Positions 1-47,909 of a stretch of 64,000 bases of DNA are shown here, piece by piece (positions within the stretch are counted from its first letter, which is position 1; each line of letters opens with the position of its first letter). The notes under the pieces are model-generated. The model was not told the origin of the DNA. It did no database searches and saw only the letters and a list, made by a program, of their open reading frames with translations. Source of the stretch: Minisyncoccota bacterium (GTDB taxonomy: Bacteria > Patescibacteriota > Minisyncoccia > Phycocordibacterales > PALSA-1337); NCBI GenBank assembly GCA_036170235.1, contig JAVHOW010000017.1, positions 4,143 through 68,142 of the forward strand. Reading direction: 5' to 3'. Made by a program: the position numbers and the translations under genes.

Positions 1-647
1 GCCAATTGCTCCTTGCCGTCCTGGTATATGCCTTTGTTATCGTCAATGACAATCTTAATTCTTCCATCTGTAGGTGTATTGCCGCCGAAAGCAATCACCG
101 GTAACTCAAGCTTTTTCTTAATCAATCCGGAGTGTAACTTTTCCATATAAACAACAACATTATCGGTGAAGAAGTGATATTTTAATCTGGTCCAGAAGAC
201 TTTTACAGGTTCAATGTCTCCGAATAATGAAGAGAAAAAGATATCGGTTAGATATTCGCCTGTATTCTTGCTTTGTTCTTTGACGGCAAGAGCGCGACCC
301 GTTAACGACTCTTTTGGCGACAAGGTTAGAGATTCCTTGTATTTTTTCACAGGTAAATATATCCTTTCGTTGATCTTGTCATAACCAAAAGAAAAAGACT
401 GATCCTCGATCCGTTTGATGGTTTCTTTCTTATCATGTGCTGATAATGCTATATCCGAATCGACCACCTTTTTCTTGCCATCGATTTCCTGTCTTTCTGC
501 ATCAATTATTTCTAGTAAATCTTTTTGACTTTGAATAATATCGAAATATTCGTACACACTTTTGAATATGCTATGAAAGATTTTCATTTCCAAAGCGTTA
601 ATAAATTCCCGATATTTTTGGTCAAGCTGTGAGGTTACGAAATCCAT
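1..647 (-). CDS. hypothetical protein, N-terminal ~215 aa (C-terminus lies beyond window start)
   Basis: Not in the ORF track because it is open at the window edge. Hand translation of the minus strand from ATG 647-645 reads MDFVTSQLDQKYREFINALEMKIFHSIF... with no stop through base 1. No family recognised. Confidence 0.45.
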   Translation of the reverse strand, partial: MDFVTSQLDQKYREFINALEMKIFHSIFKSVYEYFDIIQSQKDLLEIIDAERQEIDGKKKVVDSDIALSAHDKKETIKRIEDQSFSFGYDKINERIYLPVKKYKESLTLSPKESLTGRALAVKEQSKNTGEYLTDIFFSSLFGDIEPVKVFWTRLKYHFFTDNVVVYMEKLHSGLIKKKLELPVIAFGGNTPTDGRIKIVIDDNKGIYQDGKEQL

Positions 648-684
648 ACATATAGTTTAACATCACCATAAAAGATTACATCTG

Positions 685-1000
685 TGGCGCCTCCCGCTCC
701 AACCGCCTTTTCCGGGCAGGTCGTGCGCGGCCGCTTGTACGAGAGCGCATGGTAGGAGTACGGGCGCGTACACCTCCGCCCTGATGGAGTATGTGGCGCT
801 CCTTACGCACACATCCGTATGTCTCCGCGCATTTCCCCAGTTGCTAATCGCAACAGGGGTGCGCTCTCGACATACCGATGTGTGCTAGTCGCGAATAGAT
901 TCCGTGGTAACGGGCTGAGGTCAACGCGCCCTTATCTGCCAAGCGTCTCGCGCACCACCTACCCTCCAAAGGCGGTAGAGGCGGTCGGCGAACAGGGGTA
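685..1000 (-). ncRNA. GC-rich, highly structured RNA candidate, class unresolved
   Basis: About two-thirds G+C (41/60 in 721-780 by my count) between AT-rich flanks. Segment 688-707 pairs with 971-990 (15 WC + 1 G-U of 20). Segment 714-729 pairs with 949-964 (14 WC + 1 G-U of 16). There is a nested hairpin at 817-875, and 740-749 is perfectly complementary to 860-869. Both wobble pairs are G-U only if the minus strand is the RNA. The ORFs here translate to Arg-rich nonsense. Confidence 0.45.
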
Positions 1001-1056
1001 TTCATAAATTGCTCATTTTGTTGTAGAATATCGTCATTAAGAAATAATATAAAATT

Positions 1057-1344
1057 ATGCCACAAATAATCTCACTGATCATTTTAGCGACAGCTATCTG
1101 GTATACGTTGAAAGTTAGGAAATCAGCTCGAGCAGGTCAAGCAATAGATAGTCTTGGGGAAGGAGAAAAGGTATATGTTTGGGTATCTTCGTTATTAAAC
1201 CCGGTCTTTTCTGGAGCCGCTTTTTATTATGGATGGAAGAAACTTCTACCACATAAGGCAAAACAAGCTAACGCTATCTCTCTTTGGGCGTTTTTGATCG
1301 AACTTGTATTGGGCGCCGCTCTGTTTTTTGCATTATCTCAATAA
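1057..1344 (+). CDS. small hydrophobic membrane protein, hypothetical
   Basis: 95-aa ORF with two or three hydrophobic segments (IISLIILATAIWY, LWAFLIELVLGAALFFAL). No family recognised. Confidence 0.5.
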   Translation: MPQIISLIILATAIWYTLKVRKSARAGQAIDSLGEGEKVYVWVSSLLNPVFSGAAFYYGWKKLLPHKAKQANAISLWAFLIELVLGAALFFALSQ

Positions 1345-2520: not shown

Positions 2521-4194
2521 ATGAACAAACCGACATTCCCTACATGGGCAATCATTATCGTAATAGTTCTCGTAATCATCTTTGCCGGTGTTGTCGGTGG
2601 AATAGTTTATTTTGCATATAATCCATCGATTGCGGCTATACCAGGTAAAATAGTGAGTCTGTTCGTCAAACAAAAAGTTGATGTCATAAACCACAGCATC
2701 TATTTGTATACTTTACAGGATCCTGATCAAGATAAAGATGGATTATCTGATATCGCAGAGATACATATATATAAAACTGATCCAAAAAAGTCTGATTCAA
2801 CTGGAGCCGGTGTTACTGATGGGCAATATATTTACAGTGAGTACATGAAAGCATTTGAAGCTGGCAATGAGAGCTCACTATCACAATATAGAGCGAATTT
2901 TGATCTGTATCAAACGTCAATCTCATCGTCAACTATTGCGACGCAATTTCTAGGAACCGCCTCTCTTGAAGAGATGTTCAATATTAGAGCCCTAGAGACT
3001 TACAACTTATATGTTGGATTACCGGACGACTTGAAACAAATTGTTAGCCAAGCTCTTAATGCTAGACAAAAGGGAGACTACCAGAGATCGCTTGATTTGT
3101 TGCAAGACGCTTTATCAAAAAATTCAGATTCCTCTCTCTTGAAATACCATCTTGGTCTGACCTATCACGGCATGAAGCAATTCGACAATGCAATAAGAAC
3201 ATACGAAGGTATTGTTAATGACCCAACTCTTAAAAGCCCACTTTTATATAGCGATATTGCATCGGCATATTTAGCTCAAGAAAATAGCGATAAATTCGTT
3301 GAGAATATGAGAAAGTCCATACAGGCATTTCCTGAAGATCTAAATCAGTATTCAAAACTCGCTTTATATTATAAGAGTAAAAATCAGTTAAACAACGCTG
3401 AAGAAGTCTTGAACGAAGGACTCAAGGTTGAACCTAGATATGCGGATTATTACAATAGTCTTGCAATTATTGCCCACCTGAAAGGTGATGTGAAAGGCGA
3501 ACTCGAACTCTATAAAAAAGCAGTCTCGTATGATTTTCGATATGCGGCAGGACATGAAAACATTTCAATTCTTTACGAGGAAATACAGAATGATATAAAA
3601 GGAGCACTTACAGAAGCGCTTATAGCGTTAGAGATCAATCCTAACTCATATCATGTGAGTCGTGTGATGGCTCTATATGATAAGCTTGGAAATGTTGCAC
3701 AATCCCAGAAATTTGAAAAGGAATTACTTGCAATGAAAAATATAGATGCGCCTTCTTATAATTCTCTAGGTCTAAAGTACCTTGATGCAAATAATTATCA
3801 GAAAGCAGAGACATATTTTAGAAAAGCTATTGTCGTTGATCCAACTTTACCTAATCCATATAACAATTTGGGTATTGTTCTAGCTTCGACTGATAGAGCC
3901 GAAGAGTCGGCGGCGAGCTATAAAAAAGCTATAGAATTAAATCCGAATTATGCTAATGCGTACAGTAATCTGGGTATTTATTTCACAGGCAAGAAACAAT
4001 ATACGCAGGCAATAGATAGTTTCAACATGGCTATCAAATTGAACCCGAATCTTTGGAGACCATACCAGAGTATTGCCTATGTATACAGAATGCTCAATGA
4101 CACAACGAATGAGAAGCTATATTACGAGAAAGCTATACAATATGGCTGTACAGATCCGGCTGTAATAGAAAGACTGAGAATCCTTAACCAGTAG
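2521..4194 (+). CDS. TPR-repeat protein with N-terminal membrane anchor
   Basis: N-terminal TM (WAIIIVIVLVIIFAGVVGGIVYF) followed by many TPR-like repeats (AETYFRKAIVVDPTLPNPYNNLG, AASYKKAIELNPNYANAYSNLG). Confidence 0.75.
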   Translation: MNKPTFPTWAIIIVIVLVIIFAGVVGGIVYFAYNPSIAAIPGKIVSLFVKQKVDVINHSIYLYTLQDPDQDKDGLSDIAEIHIYKTDPKKSDSTGAGVTDGQYIYSEYMKAFEAGNESSLSQYRANFDLYQTSISSSTIATQFLGTASLEEMFNIRALETYNLYVGLPDDLKQIVSQALNARQKGDYQRSLDLLQDALSKNSDSSLLKYHLGLTYHGMKQFDNAIRTYEGIVNDPTLKSPLLYSDIASAYLAQENSDKFVENMRKSIQAFPEDLNQYSKLALYYKSKNQLNNAEEVLNEGLKVEPRYADYYNSLAIIAHLKGDVKGELELYKKAVSYDFRYAAGHENISILYEEIQNDIKGALTEALIALEINPNSYHVSRVMALYDKLGNVAQSQKFEKELLAMKNIDAPSYNSLGLKYLDANNYQKAETYFRKAIVVDPTLPNPYNNLGIVLASTDRAEESAASYKKAIELNPNYANAYSNLGIYFTGKKQYTQAIDSFNMAIKLNPNLWRPYQSIAYVYRMLNDTTNEKLYYEKAIQYGCTDPAVIERLRILNQ

Positions 4195-8265: not shown

Positions 8266-9702
8266 ATGACACAACGCGACTATTTCAAAGGCAAACGCAT
8301 TGCGGTGATTGGTCTCGGCGCGCGTGGAGAAATGGTCGAAGACGTGAAATATCTCATCAAAGCCGGCGCGTGGGTCTCTATTTATGACCTGAAAAGCGAG
8401 GCGCGTCTCAAGAACCACCTCGTATTCTTGCGTTCTGTCGGTTTGGCAAATTATGTTTGCGGTTCTATTCCAGCCGAGGATTTGCTCGATATGGATTTGA
8501 TTATCTTATCACATGAATATCCGCGCGACTCGTCATTCCTGAAATCGGTGCATACGCAAAATAGTGAAATCAATATAGAAGGAAAGAGTGATAAAGAAAA
8601 AGTCATTGAAAATTCGGGCATGACAAACTCGGATGGTGAAAAAACTATTGAACGAGCTGAAAAAGATTATCAGAAAAAAATTCCGATTGAATACCCCGAA
8701 ACACTTTTTTTCAAATTGGCGCCACCGGTGACTTTGGTTGGGGTTATGGGTATTTGTGGCAAATCAACTGTTATATCTATTCTGACTCCATTACTTGATG
8801 ACGTTTGTGAAAAATACGAAACGCAGGGATTGTTTGTGGTAGACCCTGAATCCGCGGATGGCGTATTGGTACATCTTAAGAAAATAAAAAGCGGCGACAT
8901 TGTACTCATGCGTATTGTAGATCACATATTGCAAGAAATGAGCACGTTGCGCATCAGTCCACACGTTGCCATCTTCACGACTATTCCTCCAAAAAATTCA
9001 TACACAACATCGCCATTTGAAATTTTGGCGTATCAGACGTATAACAATTTCATTATCGCATCTGATGAAGTGATTGACGCGACTCGTCTCTCGAAGTTTC
9101 AGCCACGCGCCAAAATGTTGCGTACCAAAGCATCGCTTATTCCGGCTGATTGGGGTTTTCTTGGACGTGGTCCGCATGATTATTCCAATGCAGCTTTGGC
9201 TCTCCAGGCGGCAAAATTATTCAAAGTAGATAACGATATTGCTAGGCATATTTTGGGGAACTGGAAAGCCTTGAAAGGTAGATTGGAATTGGTCAAAAAA
9301 GTTAAAAATATAGAATTTTATAATGATACGATGTCGATGACACCTGATGCGACGCTGGCTGGAATTACCGCATTATCGGAAGGTAGAAATGTCATCTTGA
9401 TTTTTGGTGGCTCCGAAGTCGGATATGAATATAATAAATTATACGCGGAATTATCTCGCTACGTGCATACGGTCATAAGTATTCCGGGAAGTGGCACTAT
9501 TCGTCAACGCCTTTCATTGCAGGAGATCGAAGGTCTAACGGTTTATTCCAAATCATCAATCGAAGAAGCGGTTCGGACGGCTTTTGAACATGCGCAAAAA
9601 GGGGATCGGGTTCTTTTTAGTCCGGGTTTTGATGCTGGTGGAGTAGATGGTTCGAAGATCGAGCGTGGTGAGAAATTTGTGAAAGCGGTTAAGGGGTTGT
9701 AG
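8266..9702 (+). CDS. murD: UDP-N-acetylmuramoylalanine--D-glutamate ligase (MurD-like Mur ligase) with ~55-aa insertion
   Basis: N-terminal Rossmann motif KRIAVIGLGARG, P-loop-like VGVMGICGKSTV, and Mur ligase C-terminal features. An AT-rich Lys/Glu-rich insertion lies around aa 95-150. Confidence 0.72.
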   Translation: MTQRDYFKGKRIAVIGLGARGEMVEDVKYLIKAGAWVSIYDLKSEARLKNHLVFLRSVGLANYVCGSIPAEDLLDMDLIILSHEYPRDSSFLKSVHTQNSEINIEGKSDKEKVIENSGMTNSDGEKTIERAEKDYQKKIPIEYPETLFFKLAPPVTLVGVMGICGKSTVISILTPLLDDVCEKYETQGLFVVDPESADGVLVHLKKIKSGDIVLMRIVDHILQEMSTLRISPHVAIFTTIPPKNSYTTSPFEILAYQTYNNFIIASDEVIDATRLSKFQPRAKMLRTKASLIPADWGFLGRGPHDYSNAALALQAAKLFKVDNDIARHILGNWKALKGRLELVKKVKNIEFYNDTMSMTPDATLAGITALSEGRNVILIFGGSEVGYEYNKLYAELSRYVHTVISIPGSGTIRQRLSLQEIEGLTVYSKSSIEEAVRTAFEHAQKGDRVLFSPGFDAGGVDGSKIERGEKFVKAVKGL

Positions 9703-16178: not shown

Positions 16179-16207
16179 TTGACATATATAGAGTTTGGGT
16201 GTACAAT
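16179..16207 (+). promoter_or_regulatory. sigma70-type promoter of DGR target 1
   Basis: TTGACA (16179-16184), 17 nt spacer, TACAAT (16202-16207). About 108 nt upstream of the ATG. Confidence 0.55.
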
Positions 16208-16315
16208 ACAGGCAGAAAGTTGGGGTCAAGAACCTTGAGTTTCTAGCTGTGACGAAACCACTACGGCCAAGTCGACAGCGCAAAGAAAACAACAAAGAAA
16301 GGAAGGGTTGCGAAT

Positions 16316-16972
16316 ATGAGCAACAAGGCATCATTAACAAACACGGAACTGGAAGTCACACAAAAAATGCAGACGCATTTTCCACGCGGCTTGGATACGA
16401 AAGTGCTCGGAGCCGTCAACAGTTGCCCAGTGGAAAATCTCACCGCGGCGCTTATGGAGATGGTGGATAAATTGGCGAGCGGTGCGAAAGCCAAAGTCAG
16501 CAAACTCCTCGAATTGGTGACGTCGGTGAAAGTTGCTGCCGTCAAGGAGTTCATCGCCGCCGACAAATTCAAAGCTGGTGAAACAGTTGATGGGGTGAAG
16601 TATTACTCCTCATTCGGCGGCAACTTCATCAAGCACTTCCTGTCCAAGGTTGAGAGAGATGTGGCAGCGACGGATCTTCGGGTCCACAAACTGCTGTGTA
16701 ATTCCAAAGACCTTGGCATCCGCACAGGGATTGGTGAGGACAATGAAGAGACCAGCCTCGCGCACCTTCAGCAGTGCTTGAAGCGTCAGGGTAACGGTGA
16801 AAAAGGTGATCTCCTGATCAATGGTTGGGCGAACATCTTCTACATCCGTGACATGGACGGCAACCTCTGGGCCGTGCGCGCGTACTGGTGCGGCGTTGGT
16901 TGGTGCCTCAGTGCCGACTCCGTCGAGGACCCGGATGGTTGGAGTGCTGGCGACCAGGTCTTCTCCCGCTGA
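16316..16972 (+). CDS. DGR variable protein (target 1), C-terminal VR
   Basis: 218 aa. The last 35 codons are VR1. Paralogous to 19021..19614 (shared ...NIFYIR...GNLWAV...W...GW.L.A.SVE.P..W.AG.QVFSR). No signal peptide or TM seen. Confidence 0.85.
   Translation: MSNKASLTNTELEVTQKMQTHFPRGLDTKVLGAVNSCPVENLTAALMEMVDKLASGAKAKVSKLLELVTSVKVAAVKEFIAADKFKAGETVDGVKYYSSFGGNFIKHFLSKVERDVAATDLRVHKLLCNSKDLGIRTGIGEDNEETSLAHLQQCLKRQGNGEKGDLLINGWANIFYIRDMDGNLWAVRAYWCGVGWCLSADSVEDPDGWSAGDQVFSR
16865..16970 (+). repeat. DGR variable repeat VR1
   Basis: 106 nt aligned to TR 17304-17409 without gaps. There are 15 differences, all at TR adenines. Confidence 0.9.
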
Positions 16973-17023
16973 TTCTTTGTGGTTTTGAACCTCTGCGTTT
17001 GTGTTCTGACACTTTGAATCTCA

Positions 17024-17066
17024 GACCCTCTGAAACTTGCGAAAGTTTTGGAGGGTTCTTTTTTTA
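17024..17066 (+). terminator. hairpin plus T-run after target 1
   Basis: gaccctc...gagggtt outer stem, aaactt/aagttt inner stem, then a T-run at 17057-17067. Confidence 0.6.
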
Positions 17067-17069
17067 TTT

Positions 17070-17078
17070 TGGTATACT
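17070..17078 (+). promoter_or_regulatory. extended -10 element (TGgTATACT), candidate promoter of the TR RNA
   Basis: The sequence tggtatact lies directly after the target 1 terminator, about 225 nt upstream of the TR. Confidence 0.4.
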
Positions 17079-17303
17079 ACAGAGTGAGGATGTCTAAGCT
17101 GTGGCGGTTACGACTTCCACGGAGCGCCTTGGGTATCAAGGTTCGAGAATCGTTTCAAATATTATTTCAAACGAGTGGGGATATTGATATTCAAAAAAAT
17201 AAAAGAATCGGTGCGATATGTCAGATGGTTTCGAGGACCACGCAAAATAGTGAACCTCCCGAGTATTCGAGGGGTAGTCGTACGGATGACATATCGCACG
17301 AAG

Positions 17304-17409
17304 CTCTGGGCCGTGAACGCGAACTGGTACGACGATGGTTGGAACCTCAATGCCAACTCCGTCGAGAACCCGAATGATTGGAATGCTGGCAACCAGGTCT
17401 TCTCCCGCT
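17304..17409 (+). repeat. DGR template repeat (TR)
   Basis: A noncoding copy of the VRs. It carries 24 adenines, mostly in AAC/AAT codons as read in the VR frame. It is invariant elsewhere relative to both VRs. Confidence 0.9.
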
Positions 17410-43701: not shown

Positions 43702-44624
43702 TGGGCAGGATCTACTTGGTTTGGTGTATTAAGTGCGATTTTGTGTAATCTGACGACAATCTCTGATGGCAATGGACCGTCTTTAAGAGCGTTCACTGCT
43801 TTTTGTACATTACCAATTTTATTGCTACCAATCAATGAGGATGAAATTAGTGGACTATTGAGTGCGAAACGGATGGCTAATGTCGGTAGGTCAGTGCCTA
43901 TTTCGCGAGCGATTGTTTCAATTTCGTCAATGGTGTGTTGCAAACCTTCAAGACCTGCAGGTAACTTTTTTCTTAGTGCGGTAAGAGATCCTTTTAGAAG
44001 GACTGATCTATTTATGATTCCAACACCAGCTTTTTGTGCCGCAAGGAATACACGAGGTTCCATGCGCTGGTCAGGAACATTGTACGCAACCTGTATGACA
44101 TCAAAGAAGCCTGAATTAATAGCTGAAAGCGGCGACTCTTCACCTCGCGTTGAAACTCCAGTGAAGCGAATTTTTCCGGCCTGTTTGAGATCCTTCAATA
44201 TTCCAGTCAATTCACCTCGTTCGATATCTTCAACACTCGGTCCATGCAACATCAGTATTGGCAGGGAGTCAATCTGTAATTTTTCTAGACTTTCATTGAC
44301 TTGCACACTTATTTTTTCTGTAAGCTCTGGAAGTGAATATTTTTCGCCCTTTTCAAGAAACTGCGCGCATTTTGTTTCTACGATAATGTCTGGATCTTTG
44401 AGTATTCCTGATTTACCAATACGCTCTTCAGCCACGCCGTAATAGCTGGCCGTATCAAAAAAAGTAATGCCGAGGTCGACTGATTGTCTGAGGAGATCGA
44501 TAGCTTCAGTTTCGGAAGGAAGCGGTCTCTCACCAAGTCCATAAGAAAAACCAATTTCCGCAGTTCCAAGTCCAATACGAGAAACCTTGAGTCCGGTGCG
44601 GCCAAGTTTCGAATACGTCATCAT
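43683..44624 (-). CDS. aldo/keto reductase
   Basis: YSKLGRTGLKVSRIGLGTAEIG, FFDTASYYG and LMLHGP. ATG 44624 forms an ATGA overlap with the upstream stop. Confidence 0.85.
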   Translation of the reverse strand: MMTYSKLGRTGLKVSRIGLGTAEIGFSYGLGERPLPSETEAIDLLRQSVDLGITFFDTASYYGVAEERIGKSGILKDPDIIVETKCAQFLEKGEKYSLPELTEKISVQVNESLEKLQIDSLPILMLHGPSVEDIERGELTGILKDLKQAGKIRFTGVSTRGEESPLSAINSGFFDVIQVAYNVPDQRMEPRVFLAAQKAGVGIINRSVLLKGSLTALRKKLPAGLEGLQHTIDEIETIAREIGTDLPTLAIRFALNSPLISSSLIGSNKIGNVQKAVNALKDGPLPSEIVVRLHKIALNTPNQVDPAQWPKLS

Positions 44625-45994
44625 GAGAGTAATTCGGCGAAGCATTCGTCGATGACTGTCACACCCTCGATAAGTGCGGCGTCGGGTATGGTGAGCGGGG
44701 GGCCAATCTTTATTGATTCTCTACCGGTATGAACCATGAGGAGTCCCTTCTGCATTGCACGCTCGCAGATGTGGGTCGCAAGTTCGCTCAGGGGTGCACC
44801 CTTAGTATCCTCAATAATAAGTGCGGCCACCATGCCGGTTCCCAAAATTCTGGCAATAACTTTCGGATATTTCGCTTTAAGTTTGGCTAGTTCTGTGTGG
44901 AGAATCTTTCCTTTGCGTCCGGCTTCTGCAACAAGTCCCTTTTTCTCAAAATAATTTAGAGTCGCGAGACCAGCCGCACATCCGAGCGGTTGTGCTGAGT
45001 GCGTACTCGACATTGAACCAAAAGCGGGAATATCGAGGATATTCTTACGGCCAATGACTGCGGAGATGGGGAAGCCGCTGCCAAGCGCTTTTCCGAGGCA
45101 CAGCAAATCAGGGGTTACGTCGTAGTGCTGATAGCAGAATAACTTACCTGTTCGGCCGAAGCCGGATTGGATTTCATCAAACATGACCAGTATACCGTGC
45201 TTCCGGGCGAAGGCAACAAGCGCTTGGATATACGCTTTCGGGTAGAGTACTGCACCCCATCCTTGGTACGACTCGATCGCGAATCCTATGACCTTCTTCA
45301 TGTTCACGCCACTCTTTTCGAGGGTGTGCATATCTTTTTCAAAATGTTTTTTCCAATCATATCCTTTATTTTCATGTTTCCATGAATAAGGGAATGGGAC
45401 GTGGTGTATATTCGGGTCTGCATGACCGATCCAGGCGGATGAGTCTGGACGGCCGCGAAGCATCTCGGCGCCCATGGTTCGCCCGTGCATGCTTCCAGTG
45501 AATGAAATAATGCCGACGCGGTCGGATGAAGTCTGCTGACCGTAGAGTCGCATCAGTTTGAGGGCGCACTCGGACGCTTCTGTTCCCGATGAAACCAGGA
45601 ATGCTTTTTCACAGAATGCTGGAGTGAATTCGACAAGTTTTTTAAGGAATTGCGCGCGAATATTGCTGGCAAAGGTATAGGTATGAATCAGTGGCTGTTT
45701 GAGTTGAGTTTGCATAGCCTTGATAACGTCTGGATTTGAATGTCCTGCATTGGCCACGAAAATAGTTGAAGTGAAGTCTATCCAACAGTTGCCGTGCTTG
45801 TCGAATACTTGGAAATCTTTTGCTTTGTCCCAGACTATCGGCAATTGGCCGTGCATCGATCGCGACTCATATTTCTCGAGCTCTGCGAAAATATCAGCTG
45901 TTCCTGGCGCAGGAATTGCGGTCCGAATCTTGCGGTATTTGGTGCTGATGGCGGGTACGCGTGCCAGTTTTTTTGAAAAATCTGAATGGGCCAT
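44621..45994 (-). CDS. class III (GABA/GSA-type) pyridoxal-phosphate aminotransferase
   Basis: SGTEASECALKL, FDEIQSGFGRTGKLF and LCLGKALGSGFPISAV (PLP lysine). Confidence 0.85.
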   Translation of the reverse strand: MAHSDFSKKLARVPAISTKYRKIRTAIPAPGTADIFAELEKYESRSMHGQLPIVWDKAKDFQVFDKHGNCWIDFTSTIFVANAGHSNPDVIKAMQTQLKQPLIHTYTFASNIRAQFLKKLVEFTPAFCEKAFLVSSGTEASECALKLMRLYGQQTSSDRVGIISFTGSMHGRTMGAEMLRGRPDSSAWIGHADPNIHHVPFPYSWKHENKGYDWKKHFEKDMHTLEKSGVNMKKVIGFAIESYQGWGAVLYPKAYIQALVAFARKHGILVMFDEIQSGFGRTGKLFCYQHYDVTPDLLCLGKALGSGFPISAVIGRKNILDIPAFGSMSSTHSAQPLGCAAGLATLNYFEKKGLVAEAGRKGKILHTELAKLKAKYPKVIARILGTGMVAALIIEDTKGAPLSELATHICERAMQKGLLMVHTGRESIKIGPPLTIPDAALIEGVTVIDECFAELLS

Positions 45995-46758: not shown

Positions 46759-46843
46759 AGTGAAGGATTATAGCTGGTGTAAGGAGGAAATACAAAGGTC
46801 TATTTGACTTATAAAGTCGCAGTATTTTTATTAATAAAAAAAT

Positions 46844-46869
46844 CCGGCAGGGGTTTGGGACCCTGCCGG
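46844..46869 (-). terminator. rho-independent terminator of the GC-rich neuB-like gene
   Basis: ccggcaggg/ccctgccgg stem. An A-run on the plus strand at 46834-46840 gives a U-run on the minus-strand transcript. Confidence 0.65.
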
Positions 46870-46892
46870 TTGTTTGCATGACTGATTATTGG

Positions 46893-47909
46893 TTAACCTG
46901 GAGATGTTCGCAACCAAGCGACACCGACGTCGGAACGCGGAGAGCGACGCACGCGGCGCAGTTTCTTTGCGACCTCCTCTTCGCCGGGGTAGATGACGAT
47001 CTTGCCGTTACCTTTGGCAACGTCGAGTTCCTTGACCGCCTTGAAGAGGCGACTGAACTCTGCCGGCTCAAGGGAGCTCGCTTGATCTGAACCGTACATC
47101 CCGCGTTCGAGCGTGATGTGGACCTCGATCATACACGCGCCCATGGCAACCGCCGCATACACCGGCATGATGCCGCTGAAGTGGCTGGAGAACCCGACGG
47201 GAACATCGAAGGTGTCAGCCAAGACTTCGATGCCGTTGAGGTTGACCATCGACAGAAGCTCGTCACCGTGCTCCGTACCTTTTGGATAGACACTGGTGCA
47301 GTGTAGGATGATGAGGTTTTCCTTGCCGAGAACATCAACCGCCGCGCCCACACCATATATGTCCGTCATGCCCGTCGAGAGAATGACCGGCTTGCCAGTC
47401 TTGCTCACTGCCGCCAAAAGTTCGTCGTCTTCGTTGCATGCAGACGCGATCTTGTGACACGGGAGGTTGAAGGGAATCATCCGGGCCAGTGCCTGGGTGT
47501 CCCAGCACGAGGTCAACCAGACGATTCCTTTTTCCGCACAGTAAAAATCAATTGCGCGGTATTCATCATCAGTAAACTCGAGAATCCGCTTGAGGTCACC
47601 GTTGGTGGTGTTTTCGAAATCCGACTGCATTAGTCGTTCGACAGAAAGCGGTGGAAGTACGCCACGCTTGATGCCGTTTTCGATCATTGATCGAGGGACG
47701 GGCCGTGCTTTTGCCAGTTCTTCTGGCGTATACACGACTTCGATCGTGCGAGTCTGGAATTTGACCGCATCGGCACCTGCCTTTGCAGCCGTGTCGATGA
47801 GTTGCTTCGCAATCTTGATGTCGCCATTGTGATTGATGCCGATTTCCGCGACAATAAAGCACGGGCAATTGGGGCCGACAAGTCGGCCGTTGATGTTAAG
47901 AACTTTCAT
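46893..47909 (-). CDS. neuB: N-acetylneuraminate (nonulosonate) synthase NeuB family, GC-rich, SAF domain apparently truncated
   Basis: CFIVAEIGINHNGDIKIAKQLIDTAAKAGADAVKFQTR. 39/60 G+C in 46921-46980, against 27/60 in 46741-46800. The C-terminus RRSPRSDVGVAWLRTSPG is far shorter than a SAF domain. AAGGAAG lies 8 nt before the ATG. Confidence 0.82.
   Translation of the reverse strand: MKVLNINGRLVGPNCPCFIVAEIGINHNGDIKIAKQLIDTAAKAGADAVKFQTRTIEVVYTPEELAKARPVPRSMIENGIKRGVLPPLSVERLMQSDFENTTNGDLKRILEFTDDEYRAIDFYCAEKGIVWLTSCWDTQALARMIPFNLPCHKIASACNEDDELLAAVSKTGKPVILSTGMTDIYGVGAAVDVLGKENLIILHCTSVYPKGTEHGDELLSMVNLNGIEVLADTFDVPVGFSSHFSGIMPVYAAVAMGACMIEVHITLERGMYGSDQASSLEPAEFSRLFKAVKELDVAKGNGKIVIYPGEEEVAKKLRRVRRSPRSDVGVAWLRTSPG

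Follow-up and report, generated by a model that had tools for sequence, protein, structure and literature searches.

A conserved, strand-specific 310-nt hairpin in a family of small integrative rolling-circle replicons of Patescibacteria: a probable single-strand origin

Near one end of a 64,000-nt stretch of a Minisyncoccota bacterium genome (GenBank assembly GCA_036170235.1, contig JAVHOW010000017.1, positions 4,143 to 68,142; the whole stretch is referred to below as the window), a GC-rich segment of about 310 nt lies between two divergent genes, one starting at 647 on the minus strand and the other, open reading frame (ORF) 95, occupying 1057-1344 on the plus strand. From the letters alone this segment had been read as a structured RNA of unassigned class, and the locus raises the question of which nucleic acid folds there and what it serves. 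The segment, hereafter the rod, is not a host RNA gene but a cis element belonging to a hitherto undescribed family of small (~4 kb) integrative rolling-circle replicons of Patescibacteria. Its function, with a probability of roughly 0.55, is that of a strand-specific replication origin resembling a single-strand origin (sso) and acting in the single-stranded DNA of the replicon. No description of either the element or the rod was found in the literature.

The base composition sets the segment apart. In 200-nt windows the G+C content is 0.53-0.60 across 601-1000 and 0.33-0.40 on both sides, which agrees with the sequence-only reading of a GC-rich island in an AT-rich context. The conserved unit spans 684-992 (309 nt) in the minus-strand reading and has a G+C content of about 0.6, compared with about 0.37 in its flanks; 36 nt separate its edge from the start codon of the adjoining gene (ATG, 645-647, minus strand), as had been estimated. 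The helices earlier listed between the two ends were recovered as inverted repeats, comprising the outer helix (Table 1), 759-781 with 912-934, and 807-823 with 869-885 (94%), and minimum free energy (MFE) folding produces one long imperfect hairpin. With RNA parameters the MFE is -172 kcal/mol for the plus strand (z -8.9) and -179.8 kcal/mol for the minus strand (z -9.8), and none of 100 shuffles folds equally well; with DNA parameters it is -98.4 kcal/mol for the minus strand (z -10.4) and -87.3 kcal/mol for the plus strand (z -7.7). No second copy of the rod was found in the 64 kb by BLAST or by the covariance model described below. Three other stretches of the window (16200-17400, 44400-45600, and 46800-47700) have a G+C content of 0.49-0.58; they lie over long ORFs and have no Rfam match.

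The hallmarks of known RNAs, already reported missing, could not be recovered by dedicated searches either. Rfam 15, the database proposed for this purpose by the sequence-only reading, yields no family at the gathering score anywhere in the 64 kb, and at E <= 10 over 550-1150 it yields only a chance snoR1 match that falls outside the element. ARAGORN predicts no tRNA or tmRNA in the whole 64 kb.

A search for homologues and covariation, likewise proposed, was productive. The same rod is present upstream of homologues of the adjoining gene, which encodes a protein of 297 aa, in 12 other distinct metagenomic loci (L088, L092, L099, L101, L102, L103, L104, L107, L108, L111, L114, and L115). The rods are 258-316 nt long, GC-rich, and 35-45 nt upstream of the 297-aa gene, and the proteins encoded beside them are as little as ~31% identical to the window copy. 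The rod is missing beside one distant homologue (L109, a locus of 28% G+C).

The 13 rods (the window and the 12 loci) form alignment A5, for which RNAalifold predicts a consensus of 64 pairs; compensatory double changes occur at 38 of these. Of the cells, 93.1% are paired, compared with 81.3% in column shuffles. The covariation score of the alignment, 0.448, is higher than that of column shuffles (0.231), none of 500 of which reaches it, and it drops to 0.07-0.10 when the partners are slid by one to three columns. The arms are strongly divergent in sequence among the loci and yet retain their complementarity. In the outer helix (consensus helices 1-3) 90-97% of the cells are paired and six pairs have changes on both sides, while in the apical helix 11 such changes are found at seven of the ten pairs. 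Two mechanical ORFs overlap the rod, at 819-1007 (plus strand) and 844-1065 (minus strand), but neither is credible, because related rods differ by paired compensatory changes; the earlier judgement that the segment holds no credible ORF therefore stands.

The preference for the minus strand, also claimed earlier, holds in part. The gene-sense strand (minus in the window) is the more stable in all 13 rods, by 8.5-28 kcal/mol, and the consensus pairs include 54 G:T cells versus 17 A:C cells. In the window alone, however, the G-U pairs that had been taken to mark the minus strand do not favour it (4 versus 9 in the two MFE structures), so that the preference is borne out by the fold energies and by the family as a whole but not by the window's own counts. 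It is strongly supported that the fold of one nucleic-acid strand, conserved and strand-specific, is under selection, the covariation having been seen in 13 independent copies. What the covariation shows is selection on a single-stranded fold, not which nucleic acid folds.

Primary sequence is conserved at four places of the rod, namely its base (TTCGCC...GGCGCCAC), a large internal loop (..ACCACGGA.. facing ..GCGCCACATAC..), segments such as TTCGCGCCTAGC and GCGTAAGG, and the apical loop (TGYG..TA). In alignment A5 a TTGACC motif precedes the 5' side of the internal loop in seven of the 13 rods. A perfect 10-nt complementarity between 740-749 and 860-869, which had been proposed to compete with a local hairpin, is real in the window, where only one of 300 shuffles has one as long, but as a conserved pseudoknot it fails, since comparable pairing is significant only in the window and two of the 12 other rods. 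The inner and outer segments are distributed as a mosaic among the loci, and the rods appear to be mosaics or to recombine. Breaks within the rod recur in Logan unitigs (L002, L097, and L089-L091). In a second sample of the window's species, L003:1-60 combines the outer arm of the window with an inner segment of the L103 type (compare window 856-920).

A covariance model, R1, was built on the 13 rods and covers a 103-nt core only. The window copy (Table 1) is its only match in the 64 kb. Outside the training set it matches L104:1235-1351 (47 bits), where the internal-loop motifs are conserved. This second L104 rod (L104:1200-1385, minus strand) is a shorter homologue that stands beside a different large serine-recombinase gene (L104:1360-3117). 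Downstream of it are a very GC-rich stretch (750-1150) and an unrelated gene, which was considered as a homologue of the 297-aa gene and found not to be one.

The genes next to the rod identify its carrier. The element, ~4 kb long, consists of the rod, the 297-aa protein gene, a 66-aa ORF, the gene of a HUH rolling-circle replication initiator (Rep), and that of a large serine recombinase. The order of the four genes is constant wherever the context sufficed, and L097, a contig of the window's own species, shows the full module order. No other non-coding stretch of the element comes near the rod region in length, the remaining gaps measuring 64-104 nt. Rods of the main family are always upstream of the 297-aa gene, and the sole module exception is the second L104 rod. 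A miniature inverted-repeat transposable element or other repeated palindromic element was considered and rejected, because the rod is single-copy in the 64 kb and the main family always precedes the same gene. Some copies have large unannotated genes (435-1166 aa) beyond the rod; the window copy has none, its rod bordering on the promoter of host ORF95. No recognisable structural (virion) proteins are encoded by the element.

The Rep matches PF23343 (REP_ORF2-G2P; 8e-21, 74.6 bits, cut-off 27.8) and, at 5.6e-30, phrog_3419, annotated 'rolling circle DNA replication initiation'. Small rolling-circle plasmids of Bacillales encode Reps ~30% identical to it, and for the Reps of Ralstonia inoviruses and of another phage record the identity is 28-34%; Microviridae records match too, and there is a faint RepSA match. 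In the recombinase, Resolvase, Recombinase, and zinc-ribbon domains are recognised, and the protein also matches phrog_95, 'integrase'.

The 297-aa protein has ~40 homologous clusters, all from uncultured Patescibacteria-type metagenomes. It has no family match in NCBIfam or Pfam, defence scans of its neighbours are uninformative, and a protein-pattern scan found none of its family in IMG/VR viral contigs. Its AlphaFold2 model (mean pLDDT 81) has a helical N-terminal domain and a C-terminal winged helix, for which Foldseek returns DNA-binding domains of the OmpR/ToxR/CadC type with local probabilities of 0.9-0.99 and weak E-values. As judged from this model, the protein could be a regulator or an origin-binding protein. 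Its gene has an extended -10 element, TGnTA(A/G)A(C/A)T (TGnTAAACT), in all main-group loci, ~6-8 nt before the ATG, and a promoter scan recovers it in L111. The rod is not a leader of the 297-aa gene, because this extended -10 lies after the rod, between it and the ATG; the cis-regulatory alternative of the sequence-only reading, taken as a 5' UTR of this gene, does not hold.

The element is integrated at tRNA genes. Every integrated copy that could be read past the integrase gene has, at the 3' end of this gene, a tRNA gene on the other strand, and in most copies the last 13-40 nt of the integrase gene overlap the 3' part of this target tRNA. Therefore, the element supplies both the end of the integrase and the end of the tRNA. 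At least six tRNAs are targeted (those for Lys, Ile, Val, Leu, Gln, and Tyr). At the end of L097 stands tRNA-Ile(GAU) in reverse complement, and in the orientation of the window the layout is tRNA-Ile, then integrase, Rep, 66-aa ORF, and 297-aa genes (leftward), rod, and host ORF95. The junction that overlaps the tRNA is thus at the integrase end of the integrated element, opposite the rod. In one metagenome-assembled genome, GCA_964646515.1, two diverged modules (L093 and L115) occupy tRNA-Ile and tRNA-Leu; their 297-aa proteins are 75% and 43% identical to that of the window. In L092 a 20-nt near-copy of the 5' end of tRNA-Ile (8801-8820), ~160 nt past the tRNA, may be the scar of an earlier integration.

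Toward the other boundary, no displaced 3' fragment of the target tRNA was found beside the rod in L088, L092, L104, or L108. In L115 the 19-nt GTGCGCGGGAGAGGACTCG, the 3' end of tRNA-Leu, occurs three times (4026-4044, 9514-9532, and 9682-9700), of which the integrase gene and the tRNA contain one each, while the third is found 1.6 kb past the rod. Such an arrangement suggests that the L115 element includes a 435-aa cargo gene and has its boundary 1.6 kb past the rod. The rod is at or near the non-tRNA boundary in the window, yet 1.6 kb inside the 19-nt repeat in L115.

On the host side of the rod, ORF95 is followed on the plus strand by a bPH_2 membrane protein gene, homologues of which are common in Patescibacteria. 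The rod is absent, by BLAST, nhmmer, and covariance model, from 80 GTDB Patescibacteria loci syntenic for bPH_2 and from their 5-kb flanks, and the GC-rich islands upstream of bPH_2 homologues are tRNAs or ordinary sequence, not rods. The presence of the rod is hence independent of the neighbouring host gene. One further stretch, L045:4134-4916, upstream of a distant bPH homologue, reaches a G+C content of 0.68 and has a terminator-like hairpin; it has no Rfam match and is unlike the rod.

The closest relative is L084, whose bPH is 85% identical. There the order ORF95-bPH-TPR recurs after tRNA-Ile(GAU), which is directly upstream of ORF95, and the module genes are gone. A truncated rod (L084:5422-5650) remains between the tRNA and ORF95, with pieces matching window 776-866 and 952-1008; it scores 31 bits with R1 and folds no better than shuffles (z ~0 to -0.7). 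From its sequence, L084 appears to be the same site, from which the module genes have been lost. In the L084 alignment, window 759-775 resembles the 3' end of tRNA-Ile; this likeness was rejected as an artefact of aligning across the deletion.

Rolling-circle replicons release single-stranded DNA and need a strand-specific, structured origin for its conversion to duplex, and the known ssos are orientation-specific, large structures in single-stranded DNA, ~160-340 nt long, which are primed by RNA polymerase and depend on structure more than on sequence (PMC5703833, PMC4595007). Several features of an sso are found here, in that the replicon has a HUH Rep, the single strand is predicted with DNA parameters to fold extensively, and structure is kept over sequence. 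Given the fold, its compensatory conservation, the strand bias, the fixed place in the module, and the identities of the Rep and the integrase, we infer that it is DNA that folds and that the fold serves to prime the lagging strand.

The context favours DNA on several counts: because the rolling-circle mode needs an sso and the rod is the only long non-coding stretch; because the signals of an RNA gene are absent; because the rod is not a leader, the 297-aa gene having its own extended -10; because the plasmid pGTG5, with a related Rep, bears a similar rod before rep; and because in L084, where the module genes have been lost, the rod has decayed. As for the RNA-gene signals, identity among the loci is 31% (about random) in the flank on the far side of the rod, versus 64% in the ATG-anchored flank. 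A terminator-like hairpin with a T-run stops 22 nt short of the rod in L088, and consensus scans found neither a conserved promoter upstream of the rod nor an intrinsic terminator after it.

If the rod is such an origin, replication may be envisaged as follows. The element would excise as a circle, and the Rep would nick one strand, which leading-strand synthesis would then displace as single-stranded DNA. In the displaced gene-sense strand (minus in the window), the 310 nt would snap back into the long imperfect hairpin, and host machinery, probably RNA polymerase, would recognise the hairpin and prime the complementary strand. The base of the rod and the adjoining flank may double as the double-strand origin of the Rep.

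Several points weigh against the rod being an sso. A blastn search in 'distant' mode found nothing similar to it in 72,556 PLSDB plasmids and 50,697 phage records, it belongs to none of the sequence classes ssoA, ssoU, ssoT, ssoW, or ssoL, and neither an RSB nor a CS-6 motif could be identified in it. The pC194/phiX-type nick motif CTTGATA is not conserved in the elements, and the second L104 rod stands beside a different serine recombinase, with no Rep in the available sequence. Displacement of the sense strand is an assumption that draws on the example of inoviruses and microviruses, and the circular and single-stranded forms of the element are deduced, none having been observed. Finally, the high G+C content, the wobble pairs of the G:U type, and the conserved internal loops fit a structured RNA equally well.

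The last point leads to the next explanation, an element-encoded structured non-coding RNA transcribed from the sense strand, which we consider unlikely. Such an RNA might be the 3' end of an integrase operon transcript in the excised circle, or it might come from an unrecognised promoter, and its role could be in copy-number control, as partner of the 297-aa protein, or against host defence. The covariation and the excess of G:U over A:C suit RNA as well as DNA, the rod is GC-rich in an AT-rich genome and has an RNA fold z of -9.8, and the sequences of the internal and apical loops are conserved. This explanation would nevertheless require a gene with no conserved promoter or flank upstream, with a terminator-like hairpin before it in L088 and no intrinsic terminator after it, matching no Rfam family; nor can it be a leader, as the promoter of the downstream gene follows the rod. 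If the rod is transcribed after all, it would be a new class of rod-shaped, viroid-like RNA of ~310 nt from minimal integrative replicons of Patescibacteria, an unlikely proposal, and could act together with the 297-aa winged-helix protein to control replication or to counter host defence.

It is quite improbable that the rod acts in double-stranded DNA, either as a region for the Rep or the 297-aa protein (a double-strand origin, cruciform, or iteron-like region) or as an accessory or attachment region of the integrase. Its position at the boundary of a conserved module, next to the promoter of a winged-helix protein gene, would suit such a role, as would the shorter homologue adjoining a second serine-recombinase gene in L104 and the breaking of assembly unitigs inside the rod in several samples. 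A duplex function, however, gives no reason for the excess of G:T over A:C or for the strand bias in 13 of 13 rods, and the sequence of the rod varies freely while its pairing is kept. Moreover, large serine integrases use attachment sites of ~50 bp, usually adjoining the integrase gene, and the site that overlaps the tRNA is at the end of the integrated element away from the rod.

A packaging signal in single-stranded DNA for a helper filamentous phage, comparable to hairpin A of the Ff phages, is very improbable. The packaging signals of Ff are long, orientation-specific hairpins, the relatives of the Rep include inovirus and microvirus initiators, and the element has no recognisable structural proteins of its own, all of which would be in keeping with such a signal. 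On the other hand, 310 nt far exceeds known packaging hairpins, the 297-aa protein has no relative in IMG/VR viral contigs, and we know of no helper phage for these hosts. A divergent housekeeping RNA (RNase P, SRP, 6S, or tmRNA) or a decayed GC-rich foreign gene fragment, both entertained by the sequence-only reading, is scarcely credible, since the loose motif resemblances noted there are all that speak for it, while no Rfam family matches within the element at E <= 10, the rod is absent from the 80 syntenic loci and their 5-kb flanks and linked to a mobile module, and the covarying pairs exclude a decaying coding fragment.

Table 1. Coordinates of the rod, its parts, and the adjoining features (window positions unless a locus is named; 5' and 3' refer to the sense reading)
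Feature	Position	Strand	Basis or remark
Whole conserved rod	684-992	-	Reads TTCGCC...GGCGCCAC; both ends kept in 10 of 13 rods; folds and covariation
Outer helix, 5' arm	949-990	-	Pairs with 688-729; inverted repeat of 42 nt, 76% complementary
Outer helix, 3' arm	688-729	-	Inverted repeat; alignment covariation
Large internal loop, 5' side, conserved ..ACCACGGA.. and A/T-rich tail	894-911	-	Alignment A5
Large internal loop, 3' side, CACATACTCCATCA inside conserved GCGCCACATAC	782-795	-	Alignment A5
Conserved core, helices 8-11 including apical hairpin	794-895	-	Covariance model R1, 94.8 bits, E 4e-24
Apical hairpin, CCCCTGTTGC-GATTA-GCAACTGGGG	835-859	-	Stems vary in relatives; loop holds a TGYG..TA-like motif
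Unpaired-bulge segment of 3' arm	740-749	-	Possible alternative conformer with 860-869; complementarity
Extended -10-like element of 297-aa gene, TGTTAAACT	654-662	-	Between rod and ATG (645-647)
297-aa protein gene, cut by window edge	1-647	-	Translation; 66-aa ORF, Rep, and integrase lie outside the window
Host flank, outside element: promoter-like site (1001-1029) and ORF95 gene (1057-1344)	1001-1344	+	Marks element end
Integrase/tRNA overlap sites	L088:8578-8651; L092:8586-8659; L112:3624-3698; L090:3655-3728; L097:3670-3715		tRNA opposite integrase gene

The mobile elements of Patescibacteria, the candidate phyla radiation (CPR), are poorly known, and the present family is defined by a covarying rod of 310 nt, a winged-helix protein, a rolling-circle Rep, and a serine integrase gene that ends in its target tRNA. 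Should the rod be an sso, it would represent a new structural class and an unusually clean case of an origin kept by structure over sequence, as well as a candidate part for replicons in organisms still without genetic tools; should it be an RNA, it would found a new rod-shaped RNA family. For genome scans there is a caution: in AT-rich genomes, GC-rich covarying hairpins can be DNA origins of mobile elements and not RNA genes.

Among known systems, the ROOL, GOLLD, HEARO, OMEGA, and raiA RNAs share with the rod a GC-rich, highly structured non-coding region on mobile DNA. They are branched and multi-domain, whereas the rod is simple and matches no Rfam model; no IscB, TnpB, or IS110 neighbour of the rod is present.

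Elements of the pSAM2 type (actinomycete integrative and conjugative elements) have tRNA genes as their integration sites and, after excision, undergo rolling-circle replication with a RepSA-type initiator (PMC2440964). The present element resembles them in its tRNA integration and in a rolling-circle Rep with the faint RepSA match. In contrast to pSAM2, which has a tyrosine integrase, is ~11 kb long, and is conjugative, it has a large serine recombinase, is ~4 kb long, and has no transfer genes. To our knowledge, no comparable rod has been described for the pSAM2-type elements.

The Ff phages have the minus-strand origin hairpins B and C, the packaging hairpin A, and Frpo, a promoter in single-stranded DNA. 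Such hairpins act only in the displaced mRNA-sense single strand, where RNA polymerase recognises a promoter-like duplex that includes an unpaired region. The Ff initiator gpII belongs to the same Pfam family, REP_ORF2-G2P, as the Rep of the element, and in the rod TTGACC is followed by the conserved A/T-rich internal loop. Unlike in Ff, no -35/-10 pair in a conserved register has been demonstrated in the rod, and the element is without virion genes.

A further parallel is the Geobacillus plasmid pGTG5 (NC_022994.1, 1540 bp; L120), the Rep of which is 31% identical to that of the element (E 5e-26). Directly upstream of rep, on the sense strand, it has a GC-rich imperfect rod of ~180 nt (306-486; DNA z -7.5), which is unannotated in the NC_022994.1 record. 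After the pGTG5 rod comes ACTTGATTA, a sequence similar to the nick motif of the pC194 type. The two rods differ in length (~180 versus 310 nt) and have no detectable sequence homology, and pGTG5 is a free plasmid without an integrase.

The rod also resembles ssoA, ssoU, ssoT, ssoW, ssoL, and sso1 of ICEBs1, which are likewise non-coding regions with extensive intrastrand hairpins on replicons with a HUH Rep; these ssos act in one strand and orientation only, and the rod has a computed strand asymmetry. As in these ssos, structure is kept over sequence and the size is comparable (160-340 nt), and, like sso1 of ICEBs1, the rod is located on an integrative element (PMC5703833, PMC4595007). The rod differs from them in that it forms one continuous hairpin of 310 nt rather than two or three stem-loops and in that its function is predicted, and it belongs to a 4-kb carrier with a tRNA-targeting serine integrase in a Patescibacteria (CPR) host.

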